This document shows positions 6,036 through 58,656 of a stretch of DNA of 64,000 nucleotides, one piece after another (position 1 is the first letter of the stretch; every line of letters begins with the position of its first letter). The translations under genes were made by a program, and so were the position numbers. The notes beneath the pieces are model-generated. The model saw nothing but the letters and a program-made list of their open reading frames with translations. It did no database searches and was not told where the DNA came from. This stretch comes from an uncultured Acidobacteriota bacterium (GTDB lineage: Bacteria; Acidobacteriota; Thermoanaerobaculia; UBA5066; Gp7-AA6). The stretch is from positions 1,116,706 to 1,180,705 of the forward strand of contig CAWGSA010000001.1 of NCBI GenBank assembly GCA_963825175.1, written 5' to 3'.

Positions 6036-6113
6036 TGACGTGCGACGTTCTAAGTTCTACGTTCTACGTGTGGCGTTTCTACGTGCTCCCAACTTAGAAC
6101 GTCGCACCCGTCA
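6036..6113. terminator. about 21-bp inverted repeat spanning the spacer between convergent genes; putative bidirectional terminator
   Basis: The arm TGACGTGCGACGTTCTAAGTT at 6036-6056 is complementary to AACTTAGAACGTCGCACCCGTCA at 6091-6113 with a 2-nt bulge. The loop contains GTTCTACGT three times. The right arm includes the stop codon of the methyltransferase gene. Confidence 0.45.
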
Positions 6114-8103: not shown

Positions 8104-8425
8104 ATGACCTGTCCTTCCCAATCGTGCACGTCGCCTACGCTCCGCTTCTGGATCTGCGCGCCTTGCGCGCACCGTCGGACGGCTCGCCCAAAGGAGCTCG
8201 ACCGTCCGCCTGATCCAGAGGCTCCGCTCCGGCTCCCGCAACGCGAGTCGTTTCGCGGCGTGCGTGCCGCGAAATTTGGTCGCGTTGCGAAGGCACGAGG
8301 ACCCAAAGACCAAAGACAAAAGCCAACGATCCGTGCACGTCGCCTACGCTCCGTCTTGGAATCTGCGCGCTTCGCGCGCACCGGCGTTCGGCTTGCCCAA
8401 AGGGTCGCGCCGCGACCGGGAGCTT
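8104..8425. repeat. two adjacent copies (one full, one truncated) of a REP/MITE-like structured repeat family
   Basis: The module GTGCACGTCGCCTACGCTCCG occurs at 8124 and 8333. Hairpin cores are at 8174-8210 (GTCGGACGG-CTCGCCCAAAGGAGCTCGA-CCGTCCGCC) and 8383-8417. The copy at 8104-8330 also carries the module GCTCCGGCTCCCGCAACGCGAGTCGTTTCGCGGCG...GCCGCGAAA, which is shared with copies at 9070, 29200 and 46400. Confidence 0.75.
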
Positions 8426-9064: not shown

Positions 9065-9200
9065 GTGCCCTTCGCGGCGCGACCAAGTTTCGCCGACTGG
9101 ATCGGCGAAACGACTCGCGTCGCGGGAGCCGGAGCGGAGCTCTCGGGATCAGGGCCGCGGCCGAGCCAAACGGGCGAGCCGCGGTCCGGTGCGCCCGCCA
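9065..9200. repeat. partial copy, reverse orientation, of the REP/MITE-like family
   Basis: CGGCGCGACCAAGTTTCGCCGACTGGATCGGCGAAACGACTCGCGTCGCGGGAGCCGGAGCGGAGC is nearly identical to 46428-46490, followed by a degenerate hairpin CCGAGCCAAACGGGCGAGCC. Confidence 0.65.
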
Positions 9201-9235: not shown

Positions 9236-10873
9236 CTAATCATAAATTCCGTCGGAGAACCAGGCGTCGCTCCGGCGATCCCGGTAGATGCGGTACAGGG
9301 CTCCGTCGGAGAGCTCCACGTCCCAATAGTCGCGTCGATCGGGGGAATCGGACCACCATTCCTCCTCCATGAACCAGGGACCGGCGGCGACTTTGACGGC
9401 GCCGGCAATGCGTGGGACCGCGTCGGGCGCGCGCGTCTTCAAGGACACGGGACGGGAAAAAGGAGACGGGGAGACGGGGAGACGGGGGGTCGGGGGGTCG
9501 GAAGGGGACGCGGGGACCTGAGGGCGGGGAGCTGAAGCCTGAGGACCCAGAGGGTCTGCCACGATCACCTCCAGCTCGACGGGCGGGCGCAGGACGCGCA
9601 CGGCGAGAAGGCCGTGGCCCGTCTTGCCCTGCGAGGGAAAGACGGGAGGTGGCGCGGGCTCGTAGCTCGCCAGCGCGAAACGCTCGGGCCGGTGGCCTTC
9701 GACGGCGCGCGGGGAGCCGATGCGGTCGGCGCCGAGCATCGCGGCCAGGCGTGCGATGGTTGTGGCCAGGCGGTCGGAGGAAAGCGCGGGCGGTCCGAAG
9801 AGGGCGAGCTGCGCGCGGCGGGGACGATCGGGATGCGCGGCGAAGGTGAAACCGGCGACGGGCGAGCCGGGAGGCCGCGCGTCGAGCTCCAGGCGCACGA
9901 GGGTCAGGAGCGTCTTGACGTCGCGCGTGGGAGCGGGAAGCCGGATGGCGCGCGCGTCGCAGCCGTCGGGATCGAGCTTCAACGTCACTTCCAGGCGCGT
10001 GCAGGCCAGGGCCTGCGACTCCAGCCGCCGCATCAGCCTCTCCAGGGCGGCATTGCCCACGAAGAGGAAGGGCTCGAGCGCGACGAGCGGCCACTCCAGA
10101 TCCATCCCTTCGGAGAAGGAGAGCGCCGGAAAGCGCGGCTCGAGCGGACGCGGATCGATGCCCCGGGCGGTCGCGTGGAGCGCCCGGCCGATCTCTCCCA
10201 GGCGGCTGGCGACCTCGCCTTCCGGAAGCCTGGCGAAATCGCCGATCGTGCCGAGTCCCCAGCGCGCGAGCGTCTCTGCGATCTCCAGGGCCGGCGCCAG
10301 GCGCGCGAGCGGAAGCGGCGCCAGAAAAGACGCCTCTTCTCCAGCGGGGACGACGGTCGGTGATCGCGCCAGGCTCGCGGCGACGCGGGCGGAGAGCTTG
10401 GAGCTGGCGATTCCGACGCGGGCCGGCAAGGAGTTTTTGTCGGCGCAAGCCCGAATCTCGCGGCCGAGACGGAGCTCGGCGTCGGGCTCGGACGGGGGGA
10501 CGGGGAGACGGGGGGACGGGGGGAGGAGCGCCGGGATTCCGTCCAGGTCGATGTAGACGATGCCCTCGCCGCCGTCCTCGACGCGCGGAGAGTAAGACTC
10601 GGCGATCTCGAGAAGCGCTTCCTGAGCCGAGCGCTCGCTCTCGCTATCGCGGGGGCGCGCGACGAGCTGGGGCAGGATGGCCCGCGACTGCGGGAGCGTC
10701 ATCCCGACCTCGATCCCGGCCTTGCGCGCCGGGCGCGTGGCGGCGACGACCCGGGCGGCGTTGCCGTTGCCCTCGCAGACGACGACCGCCTCCCCCTTCA
10801 GATCCGGTTCGCTCCTCAGCCGCGCGGCCAGCGGAAAGAGGGGAACGCAGAGACAGGCGAGGCGGGCCGGCAT
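9236..10873 (-). CDS. imuB: ImuB-like Y-family DNA polymerase (mutagenesis cassette protein)
   Basis: Start MPARLACLCVPLFPLAARL..., then EGNGNAARVVAA and GMTLPQSRAI (UmuC/ImuB N-terminal domain). ATG complement at 10871-10873, 1 nt after the imuA stop. Confidence 0.7.
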   Translation of the reverse strand: MPARLACLCVPLFPLAARLRSEPDLKGEAVVVCEGNGNAARVVAATRPARKAGIEVGMTLPQSRAILPQLVARPRDSESERSAQEALLEIAESYSPRVEDGGEGIVYIDLDGIPALLPPSPRLPVPPSEPDAELRLGREIRACADKNSLPARVGIASSKLSARVAASLARSPTVVPAGEEASFLAPLPLARLAPALEIAETLARWGLGTIGDFARLPEGEVASRLGEIGRALHATARGIDPRPLEPRFPALSFSEGMDLEWPLVALEPFLFVGNAALERLMRRLESQALACTRLEVTLKLDPDGCDARAIRLPAPTRDVKTLLTLVRLELDARPPGSPVAGFTFAAHPDRPRRAQLALFGPPALSSDRLATTIARLAAMLGADRIGSPRAVEGHRPERFALASYEPAPPPVFPSQGKTGHGLLAVRVLRPPVELEVIVADPLGPQASAPRPQVPASPSDPPTPRLPVSPSPFSRPVSLKTRAPDAVPRIAGAVKVAAGPWFMEEEWWSDSPDRRDYWDVELSDGALYRIYRDRRSDAWFSDGIYD

Positions 10874-10874
10874 C

Positions 10875-11765
10875 TCACGCACCGCGGGTGATCCGGGCGG
10901 ATGGCCCATCGGTCATCGGGTGATCGCAGCGTGATCGCAGCGTGATCGGGTGATCGAAAGAAGGCGCGCTCGCCGGGGGAGACGGAAAACACCCGAGCGT
11001 GAGTGGCGCGGATCGGCCGGAGGCCACGCGGCCGAGCTTCTCGAGTGTCAGGCGCGAGAAGAGACCGAAGAGAAGACGCGGCCCTCGTGTGCTCCCCCGC
11101 CAGACCGGACGCGCGGCGCCGGCGGCGACCACGGCGTCGGCGGCGATCCCGCTCATGCGGTAGGGGGTGAGAAGCAGGAGCGTCGATTCCTGGGCGGCAA
11201 CCGCCCGGGAGAGACGGACCCAGGCCGCGTCGGGCACGAATCGGCCGCCGCGCGGCGAGAGACCCATGTCGGCAACGACCAGGCGAAAGCCCGTCGACAG
11301 GAGCATCTCCGCCGCGGAGAGCGCTTCCTGGACCTTGCGGGGACGCACCCACAGCAGACGCGTCAGATCGACGCCGACAGACTCGGCCGCCTGGGGATCG
11401 AAAGCCCCTCCCAGGTCGACGAGCGCCGCGTCCTGGCCGCTTCCCGTCGCCGAGGCCAGGGCCGCGACCGCGATCGAAAAACGGCCGGCCGATCGCGCCC
11501 CCACGATCTCGACCAGCTTCGAGTCGGGAAGCCCGCCCAGAAGAGCGTCGAGGGGCGAGCGGGTCGGCAGCGCCGCCTGGGAGCACGCGGCCGCCGCCGG
11601 AAGGTCGCGAGCGCGCAGGAGCCGGGCGCCGGAGCCGGACAGCAGGGTCCCGTTCGGCTTTTTCGTGAAGCCGCGTCCGGCGAGAAATTGCTCCAGCGCG
11701 AGAGCTTGTGCAGTCGCCATTGAGGACAAGACCTCGATCCCCGCGTCGGGCAGGGAGATGCACAT
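10875..11765 (-). CDS. imuA: ImuA-like RecA/SulA-fold protein
   Basis: The pattern ...LVEIVGARSAGRFSIAVAALASATGSGQDAALVDLGGAFD matches ImuA/SulA-like proteins. Immediately upstream of and same orientation as imuB. The C-terminal 25 aa are encoded by a tandem repeat array, so the true stop is uncertain. Alternative start M16 at 11720. Confidence 0.6.
   Translation of the reverse strand: MCISLPDAGIEVLSSMATAQALALEQFLAGRGFTKKPNGTLLSGSGARLLRARDLPAAAACSQAALPTRSPLDALLGGLPDSKLVEIVGARSAGRFSIAVAALASATGSGQDAALVDLGGAFDPQAAESVGVDLTRLLWVRPRKVQEALSAAEMLLSTGFRLVVADMGLSPRGGRFVPDAAWVRLSRAVAAQESTLLLLTPYRMSGIAADAVVAAGAARPVWRGSTRGPRLLFGLFSRLTLEKLGRVASGRSAPLTLGCFPSPPASAPSFDHPITLRSRCDHPMTDGPSARITRGA
10899..10955. 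repeat. tandem array of GTGATCG(CAGC) motifs at the imuA 3' end
   Basis: CATCGGTCATCGGGTGATCGCAGCGTGATCGCAGCGTGATCGGGTGATCG. Same motif family as the array at 25447-25560. Confidence 0.65.
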
Positions 11766-24025: not shown

Positions 24026-24228
24026 GGACGTCTCCCTGGGGTTTGCTAGCGATACGGAATCGGTGGGGTCTTGTTCCGCATCTCCCCCCGCGGGCGCCGC
24101 CTCCCACTGCGGCTTTGCGAACATTTCCGGCCGGCCTGCGTATCGAAAGGATGCAGGACAAACGGATGGCGGCAATGGAATCGAAGTCCCCGGAGGGCCG
24201 GCGGTTACCGGCATTCTTGAGGTTTTTC

Positions 24229-25446
24229 ATGAAGAAAAAGCGTTGGATCTGGATCACCGTCGGCGCCCTGGTCGTGGGAGGCGCCTTCGTCGCCGCGCGC
24301 GGGAGGGACAAGGCCGATCCGAAGGAGAAGGCGAGTCCGTTCCGGCTCGGAAAGGTCCAGCAGGAAGACCTGCAGGTTTCCGTCCGCGAGGTCGGCGTGG
24401 TCGATCCGGTCACGAAGGTCGACGTCAAGTCCGCCGTCTCCGGGCGCGTTATCTCGCTGCGGGTGCGCGAGGGCGCGGTGGTCAAGACCGGCGACGTGCT
24501 GGCGGAAGTCGAACCGGACGTCAACCAGGCCCAGACCCTCTCCGACACCCAGGCCGGGCTGACCCAGGCGGAACTGAAGCTCCAGGACGCCGAACGCGAG
24601 TACGGAATGCAGAAGGCGCTCTTCGACCAGGGGCTTCTGGGAAGCGACGCGTTCAAACAGGTCAAGAACGCCCACGAACAGGCGGTCGAAGCGTTGAAGG
24701 CGGCCAGGATGCGCTACCAGATCGTCGAAGACCGCGGTATTCCGATTTCCGGGAGCGCCGCTTCGCAGAACGCGCGCGTGACCTCGCCGATGTCGGGGGT
24801 GGTGATCAAGAAGGGTGTGGAGCTGGGCGAGACGGTCACCTCCGGCGTCTCCTCCTTCAACGCGGGGACGGTGCTCTTCACCGTGGCGGACCTGAAGTCG
24901 CTCATCATCCGCGTCAACTTGAACGAGGTCGACATCGCCAAGGTCCACGTGGGCCAACCGGTGCGCATCACGCTCGACGCCTATCCCCAGAAGGTCTTCA
25001 CCGGACGCGTGAGCTTCGTGGCTCCCTCCGCCGATCTGGTCGAGAAGATCAAGGTCTTCAAGGTCGAAGTGACGCTCGATCAGCTCGCCGACGCCTTCAA
25101 GACCGGAATGACCGCCAACGTCGAGATCCTCGGCGAGAAGCGGGACAAGGCGGTCTCGATCCCGCTCGAGGCTCTGCAGAAGCGCGACGGGCAGACCATC
25201 GTCTATAAGTTGAAGGATGGCCTGAAGCCGCAGCAGATCGCCGCGGCCAAGGACGGCCTCTCCGGCCGCAACAAGTTCATCTGGCTCTCCGATCACTGGA
25301 AGGAATACTTCGATGTCGCTCCGGTCAACGCCGGCATCGCCACGCTCGAGCGCATCGAGATCCTCTCGGGCGTCAAGCCCGGCCAGCAGGTCTGCCTCGA
25401 AGACCCGACCAAGAAGAAGGTCGAGAAGGACGACGACACGGACTAA
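24229..25446 (+). CDS. efflux transporter periplasmic adaptor subunit (HlyD/MacA family)
   Basis: N-terminal TM, then lipoyl/beta-barrel motifs (KVDVKSAVSGRVISLRVREGAVVKTGDVLAEVEPD). ATG verified at 24229. Confidence 0.8.
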   Translation: MKKKRWIWITVGALVVGGAFVAARGRDKADPKEKASPFRLGKVQQEDLQVSVREVGVVDPVTKVDVKSAVSGRVISLRVREGAVVKTGDVLAEVEPDVNQAQTLSDTQAGLTQAELKLQDAEREYGMQKALFDQGLLGSDAFKQVKNAHEQAVEALKAARMRYQIVEDRGIPISGSAASQNARVTSPMSGVVIKKGVELGETVTSGVSSFNAGTVLFTVADLKSLIIRVNLNEVDIAKVHVGQPVRITLDAYPQKVFTGRVSFVAPSADLVEKIKVFKVEVTLDQLADAFKTGMTANVEILGEKRDKAVSIPLEALQKRDGQTIVYKLKDGLKPQQIAAAKDGLSGRNKFIWLSDHWKEYFDVAPVNAGIATLERIEILSGVKPGQQVCLEDPTKKKVEKDDDTD

Positions 25447-25560
25447 GGGAATCGGGTGATCGCAGCGGGATCGGGTGATCGCAGCGGGATCGGGTGATCG
25501 CAGCGAGATCTCAGGTCACCGGTCGCCGATCACGCTGCGCTCCCGTTGCGATCATGCTGC
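25447..25560. repeat. intra-operon spacer array: 3 direct copies of GGGATCGGGTGATCGCAGC followed by 2 inverted partial copies
   Basis: gggaatcgggtgatcgcagcgggatcgggtgatcgcagcgggatcgggtgatcgcagcgagatc...gccgatcacgctgcg...gcgatcatgctgcgat, read directly. Confidence 0.75.
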
Positions 25561-25578
25561 GATTCGGAAGAGCGAGCC

Positions 25579-26259
<681 letters not shown>

Positions 26260-26261
26260 GG

Positions 26262-26338
26262 AAATCGGATCATCGGTTCATCGGCTCATCGACTCATCGG
26301 CCCCTCGTCGAGCCGCAATCGACCGCTGGACCGATCGA
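26262..26338. repeat. spacer array of YCATCGG heptamers (4-5 direct copies) followed by inverted CCGATNG copies
   Basis: atcggatcatcggttcatcggctcatcgactcatcgg...gaccgatcgaccgatggaccgattcc. Confidence 0.7.
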
Positions 26339-26341
26339 CCG

Positions 26342-27601
26342 ATGGACCGATTCCCCATGACCGGCGCTTTCACCGAGCGCGTCCGCAATGCGTGGGTCGA
26401 GATGCGGGAGAACCTCGGCCGCGCCACCCTCCAGTCGCTCGGCGTGATGCTGGGAGTGGCCTCCGTCCTCGGGGGCTTCTCCATTTCCGACAGCCAGAGA
26501 AAACGCGCCGACGAGCTCTACATCCGCTTGGGCGGTCTGGACAAGTTGAACGTCCAGCCCTCCGCAGTGATCAAAGACGGCCAGCCCACGGCGCTGCAGA
26601 TGGCCAATCTCGGACTGCGCCGCGACGATGCCGACGAGGGACAGGGGCTCGACACCAAGGCGGTCAGCGGGGTCAGCCAGCAGAAATTCTTCCGGGCGCG
26701 GGTCCGGTCTCCCCAGGCCGACCAGGAGCGCCCGATCATCGGGATCGGAGGGGACTACCTTCCGATGGACGGCTACGCCATCGCGCGCGGGCGCGCCTTC
26801 ACCGCGGAGGACCTCGCGTCCGCCGCGCCGGTGGCCGTGCTGGGGACCGAGGCCGTGGAGACGTTCTTTCCCGACGGCCACGCTGTCGGCAAGACCCTGC
26901 GCGTCGGGGACACGCCGGTCCAGGTCGTGGGCGTCCTGCAGGAGCGCGTCTTTCGGTTTCGCAACTCGGGCCGCAACATCTTTCGCCGACGCAACCGCGT
27001 CATCGCGCTGCCGTCCACGCTGGTGGCGCGCCGGTTCCAGGGAGACCAGTATCACCGCCTCGACCGGGTGACGTTTCGCATCCGCGACCTGAACGCGATG
27101 GCGATCTTCTCCAAGAGCCTCTCGTCGATGTTGAAGGCGAACCACCGCCAGCAGGATGATTTCCGGCTGGACGACGTCGCGGCGCGGGTGCGCAAGGAGC
27201 AGAGCCAGGGCGACATCTACAACATCATCTTCATGCTCTCCGGCGTGCTCTCCCTGATCGGCGGAGGGCTGGTCAACGTCAACATCCAGATGGCGACGTT
27301 GAAGGAACGGGTCCGCGAGGTGGGCGTGAAGATGGCGATCGGCGCCTCGGGCCGCGAGGTCTTCAAGGAGTTCATGACCGAGGCGCTTCTCTTGACGGGG
27401 TTGGGCGGCGCCGTGGGGCTGGGCCTGGGAATCGCGTTTTCCAAGATCATCACCGCGTCGCTCGGAATCCCCCTGTTCATGCAGGGCAAGAGCTTCCTGT
27501 GGGCGTACTTCCTGGCCTCGGTCTTCGGCTTCTTCTTCGCGCTGTACCCGGCCTTCAAGGCCAGCCGCCTCTCTCCGATGGAGGCGCTGCACTATGAGTG
27601 A
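26342..27601 (+). CDS. ABC transporter permease (FtsX/MacB family)
   Basis: N-terminal TM, large periplasmic domain, and a C-terminal 3-TM FtsX domain. Starts MDRFPM. Confidence 0.75.
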   Translation: MDRFPMTGAFTERVRNAWVEMRENLGRATLQSLGVMLGVASVLGGFSISDSQRKRADELYIRLGGLDKLNVQPSAVIKDGQPTALQMANLGLRRDDADEGQGLDTKAVSGVSQQKFFRARVRSPQADQERPIIGIGGDYLPMDGYAIARGRAFTAEDLASAAPVAVLGTEAVETFFPDGHAVGKTLRVGDTPVQVVGVLQERVFRFRNSGRNIFRRRNRVIALPSTLVARRFQGDQYHRLDRVTFRIRDLNAMAIFSKSLSSMLKANHRQQDDFRLDDVAARVRKEQSQGDIYNIIFMLSGVLSLIGGGLVNVNIQMATLKERVREVGVKMAIGASGREVFKEFMTEALLLTGLGGAVGLGLGIAFSKIITASLGIPLFMQGKSFLWAYFLASVFGFFFALYPAFKASRLSPMEALHYE

Positions 27602-27813
27602 GGGAGGGATCGGTTTATCGGTTCATCGGTCCATCGGATCATTTGCCCGGATGGAGCGACCCCAGCCGAGATCAACCGATGAACCGATGGATAAATGGAC
27701 CGATTCCAGGGAGGGATCGGTTTATCGGTTCATCGGTCCATCGGATCATTTGCCCGGATGGAGCGACCCCAGCCGAGATCAACCGATGAACCGATGGATA
27801 AATGGACCGATTC
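27600..27813. repeat. perfect tandem duplication of a 107-bp unit built from CATCGG / CCGATG modules
   Basis: GGGAGGGATCGGTTTATCGGTTCATCGGTCCATCGGATCATTTGCCCGGATGGAGCGACCCCAGCCGAGATCAACCGATGAACCGATGGATAAATGGACCGATTCC occurs twice, at 27600-27706 and 27707-27813. The second copy runs into the start of the next gene. Confidence 0.85.
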
Positions 27814-29112
27814 CCCATGAGTAGCCTCGCCGTCCCCGCCGCCACACCGGCCGTCGAACGCCCCGTGCGTCGTCTGGGCATCCGCCAGCATCTCGCTCTG
27901 TACGGCGAGGTCGTGCGCGGGGGGTTCGTCGAGCTGTGGGCGCACAAGCTGCGGTCGACGCTGACGCTGACGCTTCTGATGCTCGGCGTCTTCGCGCTGG
28001 TCGTCATGACCTCGGTCCTCGACGGCGTGATGGACAAGATCGCGACGGGTTTTTCCGGCATGAGCTGGGATGGGACGATCCAGGTGTCGCCCAAGAGCCC
28101 GGAGACGACCGAGGAGCAGAAGCGGTTCGCCATGAGTCCCGGCCTGCGCTACGAGGATCTGTCCCGAATCGCCGCGCCGCATCCCAAGGTCCTCGGGTAC
28201 ATCCCGCGGGCCCAGAAGACTTCCGCCGTCCGCGTCGCCGGCGGCAGCGAGCGCATGTTCGTGATGGGCGTGAGGCACGATTACGCCAGCCTGATGAACC
28301 GGCCCATCGGACTGGGCCGGGGACTGACCGAGGACGACGAGCGCCGCCACTCGACCGTCGCCGTGGTCGGCGCGACCCTGGCCTCCAAGCTCTTCGGCGG
28401 TTCCGACCCCGTTGGGCGCGACATCACGGTCGAAGGGGTCCCGTTTCGCGTCGTCGGCGTCCAGGCGCCGGGGCAGCTCTTCTCCGACGAGAACTGGTAC
28501 GACGCCAACGGAATCCAGATTCCGCTCGAGACGTACATGGACCGGATCGATCCGGACCACAAGCTCGCGCAGCTCTCCGTCAAATTGAAGAAGAAGAAGG
28601 ATCTGGGCGAAGTCTCGGCGATGCTCCTGGCGCGGACCCGGGAGGCCCACCACGGGATCGAAGACGTGGAGATCGTGGACCTGGAAGCCGAGGGCGCCCG
28701 CTCCTGGCAGAACTTCCTGAACCAGATGCACGGATGGACGGTCGTCCTGATGAGCCTGGCCGGGACGGTTCTCTTAGTCGGAGGCGTGGGGATCCTGTCG
28801 GTCATGCTCATCTCGTTCTCCGACCGGCGCTACGAGATCGGCTTGCGCAAGGCCATGGGCGCGTCCGACGGGGAGGTGTTCGTGCAGTTTCTCCTGGAGG
28901 CGTGCGTGCTCGCGGCGGTCGGGGCCTCGGTCGGAACGTTCTTCGGATGGGGCCTTTGCACCGCTCTCGCCTCCAAGTTCCCGTACGGGCTGGTGGTCAA
29001 TCCCGTCGGTCTCGTCGTGGCATGGGGCTCGGCGCTCCTTCTGGCCGTCGTCTTCGGCATGTATCCGGCCGTGCGCGCGTCGCGGCTGTCGCCGATGGAG
29101 GCGATGAGGTAA
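27802..29112 (+). CDS. ABC transporter permease (FtsX/MacB family), second copy
   Basis: Same architecture as the 26342 gene. Also starts MDRFPM, preceded by the identical ggaccgattccccatga leader. Confidence 0.75.
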   Translation: MDRFPMSSLAVPAATPAVERPVRRLGIRQHLALYGEVVRGGFVELWAHKLRSTLTLTLLMLGVFALVVMTSVLDGVMDKIATGFSGMSWDGTIQVSPKSPETTEEQKRFAMSPGLRYEDLSRIAAPHPKVLGYIPRAQKTSAVRVAGGSERMFVMGVRHDYASLMNRPIGLGRGLTEDDERRHSTVAVVGATLASKLFGGSDPVGRDITVEGVPFRVVGVQAPGQLFSDENWYDANGIQIPLETYMDRIDPDHKLAQLSVKLKKKKDLGEVSAMLLARTREAHHGIEDVEIVDLEAEGARSWQNFLNQMHGWTVVLMSLAGTVLLVGGVGILSVMLISFSDRRYEIGLRKAMGASDGEVFVQFLLEACVLAAVGASVGTFFGWGLCTALASKFPYGLVVNPVGLVVAWGSALLLAVVFGMYPAVRASRLSPMEAMR

Positions 29113-29500
29113 ACGTCGCCTCCGCTGCGCGGCGGGATCTGCGGCTTCGGCCGCACCGGTGTCCGGCTCGGCCAAAGGCCTCGACCGGACGCCTGAGCCC
29201 GCCGCTTCGCTCCGGCTCCCGCGACGCGAGCCGTTTCGCTCGGTCAACTTCGCGAAACTTGGTCGCGTCGCGAAGGACCAACCAAGCCCGAAACCAACGT
29301 CGCCTCCGCTGCGCGGCGGGATCTGCGGCTTCGGCCGCACCGGTGTCCGGCTCGGCCAAAGGACCTCGACCGGACGCGAAGGCACCAACCAAGCCCGAAA
29401 ACCGGTGTCCGGCTCGGCCAAAGGCCTCGAGCGGTCGCCTGAGCCCGCGGCTCCGCGACGGCACCCCGAAGCCAGGCCCGTTTCCGGGGCCCTGAGGCAC
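29110..29500. repeat. three tandem copies of the REP/MITE-like structured repeat
   Basis: Hairpin cores GGTGTCCGG-CTCGGCCAAAGGCCTCGA-CCGGACGCC at 29158-29193, 29342-29377 and 29404-29440. The module CGGCGGGATCTGCGGCTTCGGCCGCACCGG repeats at 29126 and 29304. The GCTCCGGCTCCCGCGACGCGAGCCGTTTCGC module is at 29204. Confidence 0.8.
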
Positions 29501-29508
29501 GAATCGCA

Positions 29509-29533
29509 ACTAACAATACTTGTATTGTTAGCC
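29509..29533. other. perfect 10-bp inverted repeat CTAACAATAC-tt-GTATTGTTAG in an AT-rich island between convergent genes
   Basis: Read directly: gaatcgcaactaacaatacttgtattgttagccggc. Confidence 0.5.
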
Positions 29534-29602
29534 GGCGCGGTCACCGCTCTTCCTGGAGGAACTCCTTCAACTGCTGCGCGGCTAGGGTGCGATCGGCTCG
29601 GC

Positions 29603-30289
29603 TCAGCTGATGGGGATGACGATGGTCGGATGGGCGCCACGGCGGGCCGTGTTGGCGCCGGCCGGGGCCGGACCGATTTCCAGGCGGCCGACCCGCGGAT
29701 TCCAGAAGGCCATGACCACCCCGGACGGCAGGCGCGTGTCGAGGAGCCACTGCCACTGCGAGCGGGCGGCGTCCGGGGCGTAGAGATCGAACCGGTGGTC
29801 GCCGTTGGCTTCGCACAGAAGCCTCTGCAGAACCAGGTACTCGGGAACGGTCAGGCCGTTCCACCCCATCGCCGCGAAGAGCTTGTCCAGATCGGGCGGG
29901 CTCTTCTCGCGCGTCTCGCGCGGAAACGGACTCGTCCGGTACATCAAGAGATAGGCCCCGGCCGGGCGGTTGCGGGACGGAGCGGTCTTCAGGTTCCACA
30001 ACTCCGGCAGCGACGACGCGCTGTACTGCTCGCTCCTGGACAGGCCAAAAGCGGGGGCGATGGCGAGCTGCTTGACCATTGCGTCGAAGTGAATCTTCTG
30101 AGCCGCCATGGGCGGAAAAACGAAGGCCGCGTCGAATCCCTCGCCCAGGGCCTGGTCGAAACGGCTTTGACGCTCCGGACCGAGGTCGATGGCGGGCGGC
30201 AGTTCCTTGGCCAGCGCGACGAGCTCATGGCTCCGGAAAAACGCAGCGCTCGCCGCCAGCGACGTCTTGGGGTCGGTCTGTCGTTTCAC
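29603..30289 (-). CDS. hypothetical protein
   Basis: 228-aa ORF downstream of the kinase gene. No motif recognised. Confidence 0.4.
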   Translation of the reverse strand: MKRQTDPKTSLAASAAFFRSHELVALAKELPPAIDLGPERQSRFDQALGEGFDAAFVFPPMAAQKIHFDAMVKQLAIAPAFGLSRSEQYSASSLPELWNLKTAPSRNRPAGAYLLMYRTSPFPRETREKSPPDLDKLFAAMGWNGLTVPEYLVLQRLLCEANGDHRFDLYAPDAARSQWQWLLDTRLPSGVVMAFWNPRVGRLEIGPAPAGANTARRGAHPTIVIPIS

Positions 30290-40058: not shown

Positions 40059-40095
40059 ATCGTGAGGCGTGAGGCGTTAGGCGTGAGGCGGAAGA
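40059..40095. repeat. spacer array of GGCGTGAGG nonamers
   Basis: gatcgtgaggcgtgaggcgttaggcgtgaggcgg. Reverse-complement family of the array at 58596-58656. Confidence 0.65.
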
Positions 40096-46239: not shown

Positions 46240-46570
46240 GGTCGGCTTCCGGCTTGGCAAGGGCGAGGTGCAGGTCGCGTCCGCTCGATCGGGATCTGCG
46301 GGCCGGAGCGCGGACGGGGACTTGACGCGGGCGGCCGCGAGGGCCGCCCCTACGGCACCAATCGCAAACGTTCGTAGGGGAGGGGCTTGTCCCCGCCCCC
46401 GCTCCGGTTTGCCCGCGCTTTCGCGGCGCGACCAAGTTTCGCGGACTGAATCCGCGAAACGACTCGCGTCGCGGGAGCCGGAGCGGAGCGCGCGATGAGG
46501 CGTTTGGTCGAGCCCCTTTGGGCGAGCCAAACGCCGGTGCGCCGAAGGCGCACATCGCGAGCGAAGCGGA
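46240..46570. repeat. composite copy of the REP/MITE-like family
   Basis: CCGCTCGATCGGGATCTGCG module at 46281. CGAAAC...GTTTCG module at 46398-46490. Hairpin core GGCGTTTGG-TCGAGCCCCTTTGGGCGAGC-CAAACGCC at 46499-46535. Confidence 0.8.
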
Positions 46571-54288: not shown

Positions 54289-54371
54289 GCGAGGCGGATT
54301 GTATGACCTGGGACGCGGGGATGAAGGACTCGGTCCTTAAGACCGAGGACCGCGGACGGAGGACCGGGGAC

Positions 54372-58417: not shown

Positions 58418-58575
58418 TTCCGCTCGATCGGGATCTGCGCTACGCGCACCGGCGTTCGGCTCGCCCAAAGGGGCTCGACCGAACGCCTGATCCCTCCCTC
58501 GCTCTCGCTCCCGCGGCGCTCGCCTCCTCCTTCGCTTCCGCTCAGGAGACTACGCGCGCCGCGAACCAGGCCTGA
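58418..58575. repeat. compact copy of the REP/MITE-like family
   Basis: CCGCTCGATCGGGATCTGCG, then hairpin GGCGTTCGG-CTCGCCCAAAGGGGCTCGA-CCGAACGCC at 58451-58487. Confidence 0.8.
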
Positions 58576-58595: not shown

Positions 58596-58656
58596 GTCTC
58601 CGCCTCACGCCTCACGCCTTACGCCTCTCGCCTTACGCCTTACGCCTTACGCCCTT
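58596..58656. repeat. array of about 6 CCTCACGCC / CCTTACGCC nonamers abutting the stop codon of the DUF4097 gene
   Basis: cgcctcacgcctcacgccttacgcctctcgccttacgccttacgccttacgccc. Confidence 0.7.

Follow-up and report, generated by a model that had tools for sequence, protein, structure and literature searches.

The spacers of a four-gene transporter operon in a 64,000-nucleotide (nt) stretch of an uncultured Acidobacteriota bacterium (contig CAWGSA010000001.1; hereafter the window) are occupied by imperfect palindromes with arms built of short tandem modules. We think it probable that these are inserts between cistrons akin to the intervening sequences (IVSs) of rRNA, lacking an open reading frame (ORF) of their own and possessing unstable repeat arms, one of them having been doubled recently. 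As such, they represent one instance of a broad class of IVS-like palindromic inserts for which we found no description in the searchable literature; publications on Acidobacteria repeats and on the PF05635/TIGR02436 family yielded no account of these elements outside rRNA. A first-pass annotation of this DNA had noticed the modules and read them as a recently duplicated regulatory leader together with the beginning of a gene, or else as a mobile-like module: the observation itself is real, the former reading is wrong and the latter partly right.

Hairpin units in the operon spacers and their insertion at a gene junction

The direct and inverted modules constitute the two arms of one hairpin in each imperfect-palindrome unit of ~100 nt, a pairing that had escaped the first-pass annotation, as had a third spacer of the same design (25447–25578) situated before the ATPase gene. 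All features of the operon lie on the + strand. At the junction of the two permease genes, Tandem Repeats Finder resolves nucleotides 27601–27814 into 2.0 copies, 100% identical, of a unit of 107 nt, in agreement with the exact 2 × 107-bp duplication reported before. Unit A (27601–27707; hairpin 27606–27707) is composed of a Shine–Dalgarno (SD)-like GGGAGGG, a left arm of four ATCGGNNN octamers (27609–27642), a loop and a right arm (27670–27707), with a predicted folding energy of -50.1 kcal/mol (z -3.07); unit B (27708–27814; hairpin 27713–27814), its exact copy, folds at -53.9 kcal/mol (z -4.05), and the two folded jointly reach -110.5 kcal/mol (z -5.7). A GC-corrected sliding fold across the whole window places the 107-nt unit as its strongest outlier (z -4.4). 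Because the two copies agree at all 107 positions (0 differences), whereas the arms within each hairpin are only ~81% complementary (over 26–32 nt), the duplication appears to be recent, as had been proposed from the letters alone.

Spacer 1, which extends from the ATPase stop codon to the permease 1 start (26260–26356; -44.7 kcal/mol), displays the same plan: a left arm of five ATCGGNTC octamers (26264–26301; 4.8 copies at a period of 8) and a right arm of inverted CCGNTSGA octamers (26318–26354, with 4.2 inverted copies at 26318–26351) that terminates in ATGGACCGATTCC. The direct array and the inverted copies described earlier are hence both present, but the period is 8 and not 7, the heptamer YCATCGG being the core of the octamer. 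In register, spacer 1 is 64% identical to the 107-nt unit, and ATCGGNNNATCGGNNNATCGG occurs 6 times in the window as against 0 in shuffles, all six occurrences falling within these two spacers. The remaining hairpin spacer, spacer 0, follows directly upon the TAA stop of the HlyD-type membrane-fusion adaptor gene, which is the first of the operon (24043–25446, start uncertain; Pfam HlyD_D23 and HlyD_3), and precedes the ABC transporter ATPase gene (25579–26259; Pfam ABC_tran, 2.6e-33). It folds at -62.7 kcal/mol, and its left arm holds 3 × 19 nt of GGGATCGGGTGATCGCAGC (25448–25510; period 19, 3.2 copies, 97%), facing inverted GATCACGCTGCG-type copies in the right arm (25527–25566; inverted pairs I22–I24). 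The stretch 25448–25510 also exhibits a common module, GGGTGATC / AGGTGAT, that is encountered at many loci (e.g., L008, L017 and L187) and matches the complement of what we take to be the 3′ end of 16S rRNA (GGATCACCTCC). A scan for promoters and terminators recovered no such sites in the spacers, making a single transcript likely. There is no rRNA in the window, and Rfam returned no match at the gathering score across it, with only chance-level hits (E > 2) in 25300–29700. One ORF of 76 codons (27594–27824) has an ATG overlapping the permease 1 stop and a TAG overlapping the permease 2 start, and runs through the two 107-nt copies in different frames (their length is not divisible by 3); since it is open in 3% of shuffles, we rejected it as a coupling device and treat it as a product of chance.

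The history of the doubled spacer can be read from related operons. The permease genes of 56 orthologous loci share an 8-nt overlap (TATGAGTAG or TATGAGTGA), and relative to this ancestral state the window spacer is, by all indications of the comparison, an insertion. The window junction reads CACTATGAGT-GA, followed by the inserted GGGAGGGATCGG...CCGATTCC-CC and then ATGAGT-AGC; that is, the overlap is split by a 217-nt insert between duplicates of the host motif ATGAGT, the left copy (27594–27599) lying within TATGAGTGA at the permease 1 end and the right one (27817–27822) forming the permease 2 start, such that both stop and start are recreated. Hairpins of other modules split the same junction in L127 (an 88% relative; 106 nt, CATTGA modules), L178 (104 nt), L194/L195 (90 nt, GTCTAAG modules) and L202 (84 nt, ATCGGGTG modules), with ATGAGT-like duplicates flanking each. 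In L200 a 39-nt spacer with no clear hairpin lies between duplicated TATGAGT motifs, while the 30-nt spacer of L006, an 87% relative, resembles both ends of the L127 hairpin joined together. The duplicate measures 6 nt around the window insert, with similar ones in L178, L194, L202 and L200; this flanking duplication may be a survivorship effect, given that an insertion has to spare both stop and start in order to persist. Thus, even a tight, overlapped gene junction can take an insert of 100–200 nt without the loss of either gene.

These boundaries also bear on where the permeases begin. Both had been taken to start with MDRFPM behind an identical 17-nt leader. The 17-mer (GGACCGATTCCCCATGA) indeed occurs exactly twice in the window, at 26344 and 27804, and the longest ORF of either permease can be read as beginning MDRFPM; it is the N-terminus that does not hold. 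Permease 2 (27817–29112; 431 aa, MacB/FtsX-type by Pfam) is 100% identical to a public protein of 431 aa with the first residues MSSLAV, which corresponds to a start at 27817, and a start of the form MS(S/E) is common to the best 120 homologues and to all orthologues. The names that close homologues bear point to a Thermoanaerobaculia-type acidobacterium as the source of the DNA. Likewise, permease 1 (26357–27601; Pfam MacB_PCD and FtsX) comprises 414 aa from its second ATG, its orthologues being 414–415 aa long and starting M(x)xGAF at the position equivalent to 26357. An MDRFP start is found in 0 of about 75 orthologues of either permease. As the orthologues and the public annotation begin at the next ATG (26357 and 27817), MDRFPM is best seen as a by-product of the palindrome right end (ATGGACCGATTCC plus CC) read in frame with the true ATG rather than as a real N-terminus. 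The upstream in-frame ATGs, each with four further codons (MDRFP), are probably untranslated: one (26342–26356) belongs to the palindrome right terminus inside the stem, where the orthologue starts and the predicted fold of spacer 1, in which the ATG at 26342 is base-paired, argue against its use; the other (27802–27816) consists of the unit B right terminus plus CC and is discounted by the annotation and the orthologue starts. The shared 17–19 nt before the permeases are this same right terminus, followed by CC and the start codon. The exact repeat stops at 27814, two bases short of the true permease 2 ATG, which lies outside it within the duplicated ATGAGT; the second repeat copy thus does not reach into the coding start as had been supposed. 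Further, no ribosome-binding site is recognizable directly 5′ of either permease ATG. The two proteins share 25% identity, their longest ORFs matching in the first 6 residues only, and because of this low value they appear to be old paralogues. More generally, in-frame ATGs within such palindromes can give rise to false N-terminal extensions, whereby unrelated genes seem to share a start.

Palindromic spacers and S23p genes across the Acidobacteriota

The window elements have numerous counterparts. At the orthologous ATPase/permease 1 and adaptor/ATPase junctions, long spacers are again palindromes of tandem 7–8-mers, the modules differing by lineage (GATCGG, CATTGA, GTCTCAAG, GGGATAC, GGTCGTAG, GGAGAGA and CAGCTNA). 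Random segments served as the reference for 34 non-redundant spacers of 60–230 nt from orthologous operons: 16 of the spacers lie above the 99th percentile in self-complementarity and 14 in 6–12-nt periodicity. A scan of one genome per species, with four ATCGG octamers as the query, recovered at least 119 stretches; among the 119 matches listed, which are mostly intergenic, 64 were judged to come from Acidobacteriota (Terriglobia, Angelobacter, Solibacter and Thermoanaerobaculia). Those lying between co-directional genes are hairpins of roughly 50–150 nt with ends of the form (G)GAATCGGG ... CCCGATTC(C/T). On aligning the window units with hairpins of other junctions and lineages, an A-T-Y-G register is invariant every 8 nt, and the terminal motif GGAATCGG ... 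CCGATTCC recurs together with the ATYGR 8-nt register at unrelated loci of different genomes. Moreover, different junctions of one genome have module types in common in the window, L178, L146 and L003. The median distance from the upstream stop to the beginning of a palindrome is 6 nt, and that from its end to the following start is 21 nt, the palindromes lying closer to the stop in 23 cases versus 3 (Wilcoxon p = 3.7e-5); hence, they are anchored to the 3′ end of the gene that precedes them.

Outside the Acidobacteriota, ATCGG-octamer arrays were observed in L045, L040, L100 and L067: they are long and run in both orientations on a Thermoleophilia contig, comprise >25 units in a single orientation on each of a Verrucomicrobiae and a Rhodobacteraceae contig, and occur on a Sphingosinicella contig (L067) as well. 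A conserved hairpin type, CTCCCTCTCCCC...GGGGAGAGGGACGGGGTGAGGG, occurs just after permease 2 in L005, L131, L176, L182 and L187 and is absent from the window.

The link to the IVSs comes from the loops. In several relatives the ATPase/permease 1 spacer measures 446–505 nt and contains in its loop an intact gene of the PF05635/TIGR02436 family, the product of which is a four-helix-bundle protein known as S23p or “23S rRNA intervening-sequence protein”. Such an intact gene is lodged between inverted module arrays at this junction in L003/L004 (insertion coordinates 4292–4693 in L003), L131, L146, L166 and L137, and a 335-nt version of the spacer in L187–189 retains a truncated S23p gene. The same arrangement is seen at unrelated loci, namely L017 (with ATCGGG modules), L067 and L117. 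For 8 of the 9 S23p genes that are unique, no more than 3 of 2995 control placements scored as high in flanking inverted repeats; we used this alignment score in place of RNA duplex energy, which is uninformative in GC-rich DNA because the controls already gave -81 kcal/mol. All the S23p genes are co-oriented with their neighbors, and in L146 and L003 the ORF-less hairpin and the S23p-bearing element of one operon use the same module. As separate observations, the L067 case is a Sphingosinicella contig with the gene in the loop of an octamer palindrome, and in several S23p-bearing elements the left arm is a run of SD-like AGGTG/GGAGA motifs and the right arm resembles the anti-SD.

Regarding the dynamics of the arms, S23p genes at the same junction are 59–66% identical, their flanking genes are 72–83% identical, and three of the S23p genes share a GACAAG motif ahead of arms made of completely different modules. 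This suggests that the S23p elements are old residents with arms that turn over in place while staying complementary. At a conserved Terriglobales locus (L217–L226, about 2380–2500; L207, about 2440–2500), where the S23p gene is flanked by a divergent LTXXQ gene on one side and a two-component operon on the other, strains with an identical S23p protein differ by one octamer in the left arm, which comprises either 5 or 4 of them depending on the strain; the palindrome there extends outward into GTAAAGATTTGTA / TACAAATCTTTAC.

Other repeats are scattered through the window itself. A hairpin of ACGTTCT heptamers between convergent genes (6040–6110; -38.7 kcal/mol) follows the operon-hairpin design with another module, presenting three direct units and then inverted TTAGAACGTCGCAC. 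Between two minus-strand genes, a mixed array (10911–10957) strings together CATCGG, 2.6 copies of GTGATCGCAGC and GTGATCGG, i.e., modules of two operon spacers, and its partner arm is weak. Tandem 7–8-mer arrays with no clear inverted partner are found at 1481–1535 (GGTTCGAC ×6), 9462–9495 (GGAGACGG ×4), 10490–10524 (GGACGGGG ×4), 40061–40090 (CGTGAGG ×4), 54341–54371 (GACCGAG ×4) and 58601–58653 (CGCCTTA ×7.6); the last is the reverse complement of the type at 40061, an array that begins immediately behind a stop codon. The region directly past permease 2 (29112–29470) belongs to a second dispersed intergenic repeat family, different from the hairpins: it comprises two exact 67-nt copies (29112–29178 and 29296–29362) and a 66-nt pair at 89% identity, with related copies at 8180–8293, 9069–9136 (-), 46420–46490 (-) and 58445–58490.

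A plausible mechanism and its rivals

We advance the following scenario for the elements, in which their anatomy, insertion history, family and association with S23p are supported by the data and the remainder is inferred. The basic unit is a series of tandem 8-nt modules, a loop and then the reverse complements of those modules, a design common between genes in Acidobacteriota; its full-length form carries an S23p gene in the loop, which the three copies of the window operon lack. At the permease junction such an insert split the ancestral 8-nt stop/start overlap with duplication of six bases (ATGAGT), so that both permease genes kept their ends, and only thereafter was the 107-nt unit duplicated in tandem, very recently. 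The arms behave as unstable microsatellites held mutually complementary, with modules varying by lineage and junction and their number by strain. The operon would probably remain one transcript, in which each unit could form a stem of roughly 35–40 bp that begins shortly past the stop and finishes shortly ahead of the following ATG. By opening the stem at its base, a ribosome that terminates on the preceding gene might then make the following start accessible, thereby preserving translational coupling. By analogy, such a stem would be the kind of substrate that RNase III cuts in rRNA IVSs, and it is plausible that the ~35–40 bp stems are indeed RNase III substrates.

A bolder extension, which we hold only tentatively, is that stop-anchored palindromes of co-evolving 7–8-mers, with or without S23p, are the mRNA counterpart of rRNA IVSs. 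They would be widespread “intercistronic inserts” that persist because the stem holds stop and start together or because RNase III excises them, with the S23p pentamer possibly acting on the module arrays themselves. If true, this would place the enigmatic S23p/IVS family in a genomic setting that makes its function amenable to testing. In any case, the IVS design is present between operon genes of a major soil phylum, and a single orthologous junction shows it in ORF-bearing, decaying and ORF-less forms; this offers a comparative series for studying how such elements are gained, how they decay, how their arms co-evolve and how they affect expression of the operon.

Several observations weigh against the view of the elements as IVS-like inserts acting in RNA. 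Neither tblastn nor hidden Markov model searches detected an S23p gene in the window or its three hairpin copies, so that the S23p link rests on shared architecture and on the relatives. The loops of different hairpin copies are unrelated. The 34 spacers show no sense-strand folding advantage (17 versus 17; p = 0.52), and hence nothing in them points to selection on RNA rather than DNA; most orthologous operons are devoid of a hairpin at the permease junction, which counts against a dedicated RNA function. The RNA role, comprising RNase III processing and translational coupling, is accordingly one that we infer. Identical S23p proteins on 16 and 24 contigs are all at one syntenic locus, there is no sign of recent transposition of S23p genes, and we saw no transposase beside the elements examined, although no screen for Y1 transposases was made among the ORFs of the window. 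The 107-nt duplication, for its part, is a rare and recent event or, in principle, an assembly error; its borders display no microhomology, and 1.49 Mb of related DNA contain 0 other tandem duplications of a whole hairpin.

Two of the rival accounts attribute the spacers to the expression of the permeases. The first-pass view, that a regulatory leader with the 5′ end of a permease was recently duplicated or that a module supplies a ribosome-binding site and start to both genes, draws on the identical 17–19 nt, the shared MDRFPM reading and the exactness of the 107-nt copies; we regard it as very improbable, given permeases that diverge beyond six residues of their longest ORFs, orthologue and public starts at the next ATG, a true ATG situated in duplicated host sequence outside the repeat, the missing SD motif directly upstream of either ATG, and the fact that most relatives function with the 8-nt overlap and no spacer at all. 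No more credence attaches to a dedicated cis-regulatory RNA, either a split ribosome-binding site in which the two feet of the stem bring together GGGAGGG (5′) and AUG (3′) or a device tuning the ratio of the four subunits. GGGAGGG does lie directly 5′ of each stem with an AUG 2 nt 3′ of it, and hairpins span exactly from stop to start in the window, L046, L103, L005, L132, L178 and L194; however, most members of the family stop well short of the following start codon, and the even folding of the two strands, the absence of the hairpin from this junction in most orthologous operons and the lack of an Rfam match all tell against such a device.

The other two accounts concern origin. Purely local growth by slippage and arm-to-arm template switching, with no copying between loci, no function and no relation to S23p, would fit the differing modules of different lineages at the same junction, the unrelated loops, the one-octamer polymorphism between strains, the absence of strand bias and of recent transposition, and the L200 spacer, where TATGAGT duplicates enclose no clear hairpin. 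It would leave unexplained the recurrence of the terminal motif and ATYGR register across unrelated loci and genomes, the module types common to the junctions of one genome, the repeated association with S23p genes and the anchoring to stop codons; we therefore deem it unlikely. Still less probable, in our estimate, are mobile elements of the repetitive extragenic palindromic (REP)/REPIN type or miniature inverted-repeat transposable elements (MITEs), moved by a transposase encoded elsewhere, be it a tyrosine transposase like the REP-associated ones (RAYTs) or another. Their size of ~100 nt, palindromic nature and intergenic location just 3′ of genes, together with the 6-nt flanking duplication of the window and its likes in L178, L194 and L202, speak for such elements, and Acidobacteria encode RAYT-like TIRYT genes (PMC3733652). 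Against them stand the absence of a GTAG or CGTC head and of a high-copy, near-identical family in the 64 kb, arm modules that differ by copy, no transposase beside the elements examined, and a flanking duplication that may be a matter of survivorship. The mobile-like module of the first-pass annotation survives to the extent that there was an insertion relative to the 8-nt overlap and that the family is widespread. In sum, the reading of the spacers as ORF-less IVS-like inserts between cistrons remains the one we favor.

Comparison with known systems

Among known repeats, the REP sequences, bacterial interspersed mosaic elements (BIMEs) and REPINs resemble the window elements in being imperfect palindromes of comparable size that are intergenic, often lie just past a stop, occur within operons and are sometimes tandem. 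The window elements differ in having no GTAG or CGTC head and no GTAG anywhere within the element, their termini being GGAATCGG / CCGATTCC or GGGAGGGATCGG; in place of a uniform high-copy family, the 64 kb of the source genome hold three related hairpin copies and other arrays with different modules, the arms being tandem 7–8-mers that vary by copy, and no RAYT was seen beside the elements. From MITEs they are set apart by their cargo, as the only one seen is S23p, which is no known transposase, and by identical S23p genes that are syntenic and not dispersed.

Two families of tandem repeats invite comparison as well. The mycobacterial interspersed repetitive units (MIRUs) are tandem units of 46–101 bp in intercistronic operon spacers, with variable copy number and small ORFs that overlap the neighboring stop and start. 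The ORF at 27594–27824 similarly bridges its spacer, which, at the frequency with which shuffles leave it open, is weak evidence of kinship; moreover, the window unit is a palindrome, with a length not divisible by three. The short tandemly repeated repetitive (STRR) heptamer arrays of cyanobacteria and other short variable-number tandem repeats likewise consist of intergenic 7–8-nt units of varying copy number, but the window arrays form inverted pairs that fold into a hairpin and are anchored to stop codons.

The closest parallel is with the IVSs of 23S rRNA in Coxiella, Leptospira, Salmonella and others, the function and origin of which, along with those of their S23p genes, have not been known for over 30 years (PMC4990558). 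The IVS of Coxiella has a stem of terminal inverted repeats, an SD-like AGAAGA, an S23p ORF and tandem GACAGAT heptamers that vary in number between strains, and it is cut out by RNase III (PMC4990558). The present elements differ in lying between protein-coding cistrons or after stop codons and not inside rRNA helices, and in arms that are far richer in repeats; the window copies are without an ORF, and the excision by RNase III that is known for IVSs is extended to them by analogy. The shared features are as follows: (i) a long stem formed by terminal inverted repeats; (ii) tandem repeats in the stem region that vary between strains, as the octamer number does in the relatives; (iii) a loop with an S23p (PF05635) ORF or none, the relatives carrying that ORF at the very same ATPase/permease 1 junction; (iv) co-orientation with, and dependence on, host transcription; and (v) toleration by the host because the stem closes the gap that the insert creates.

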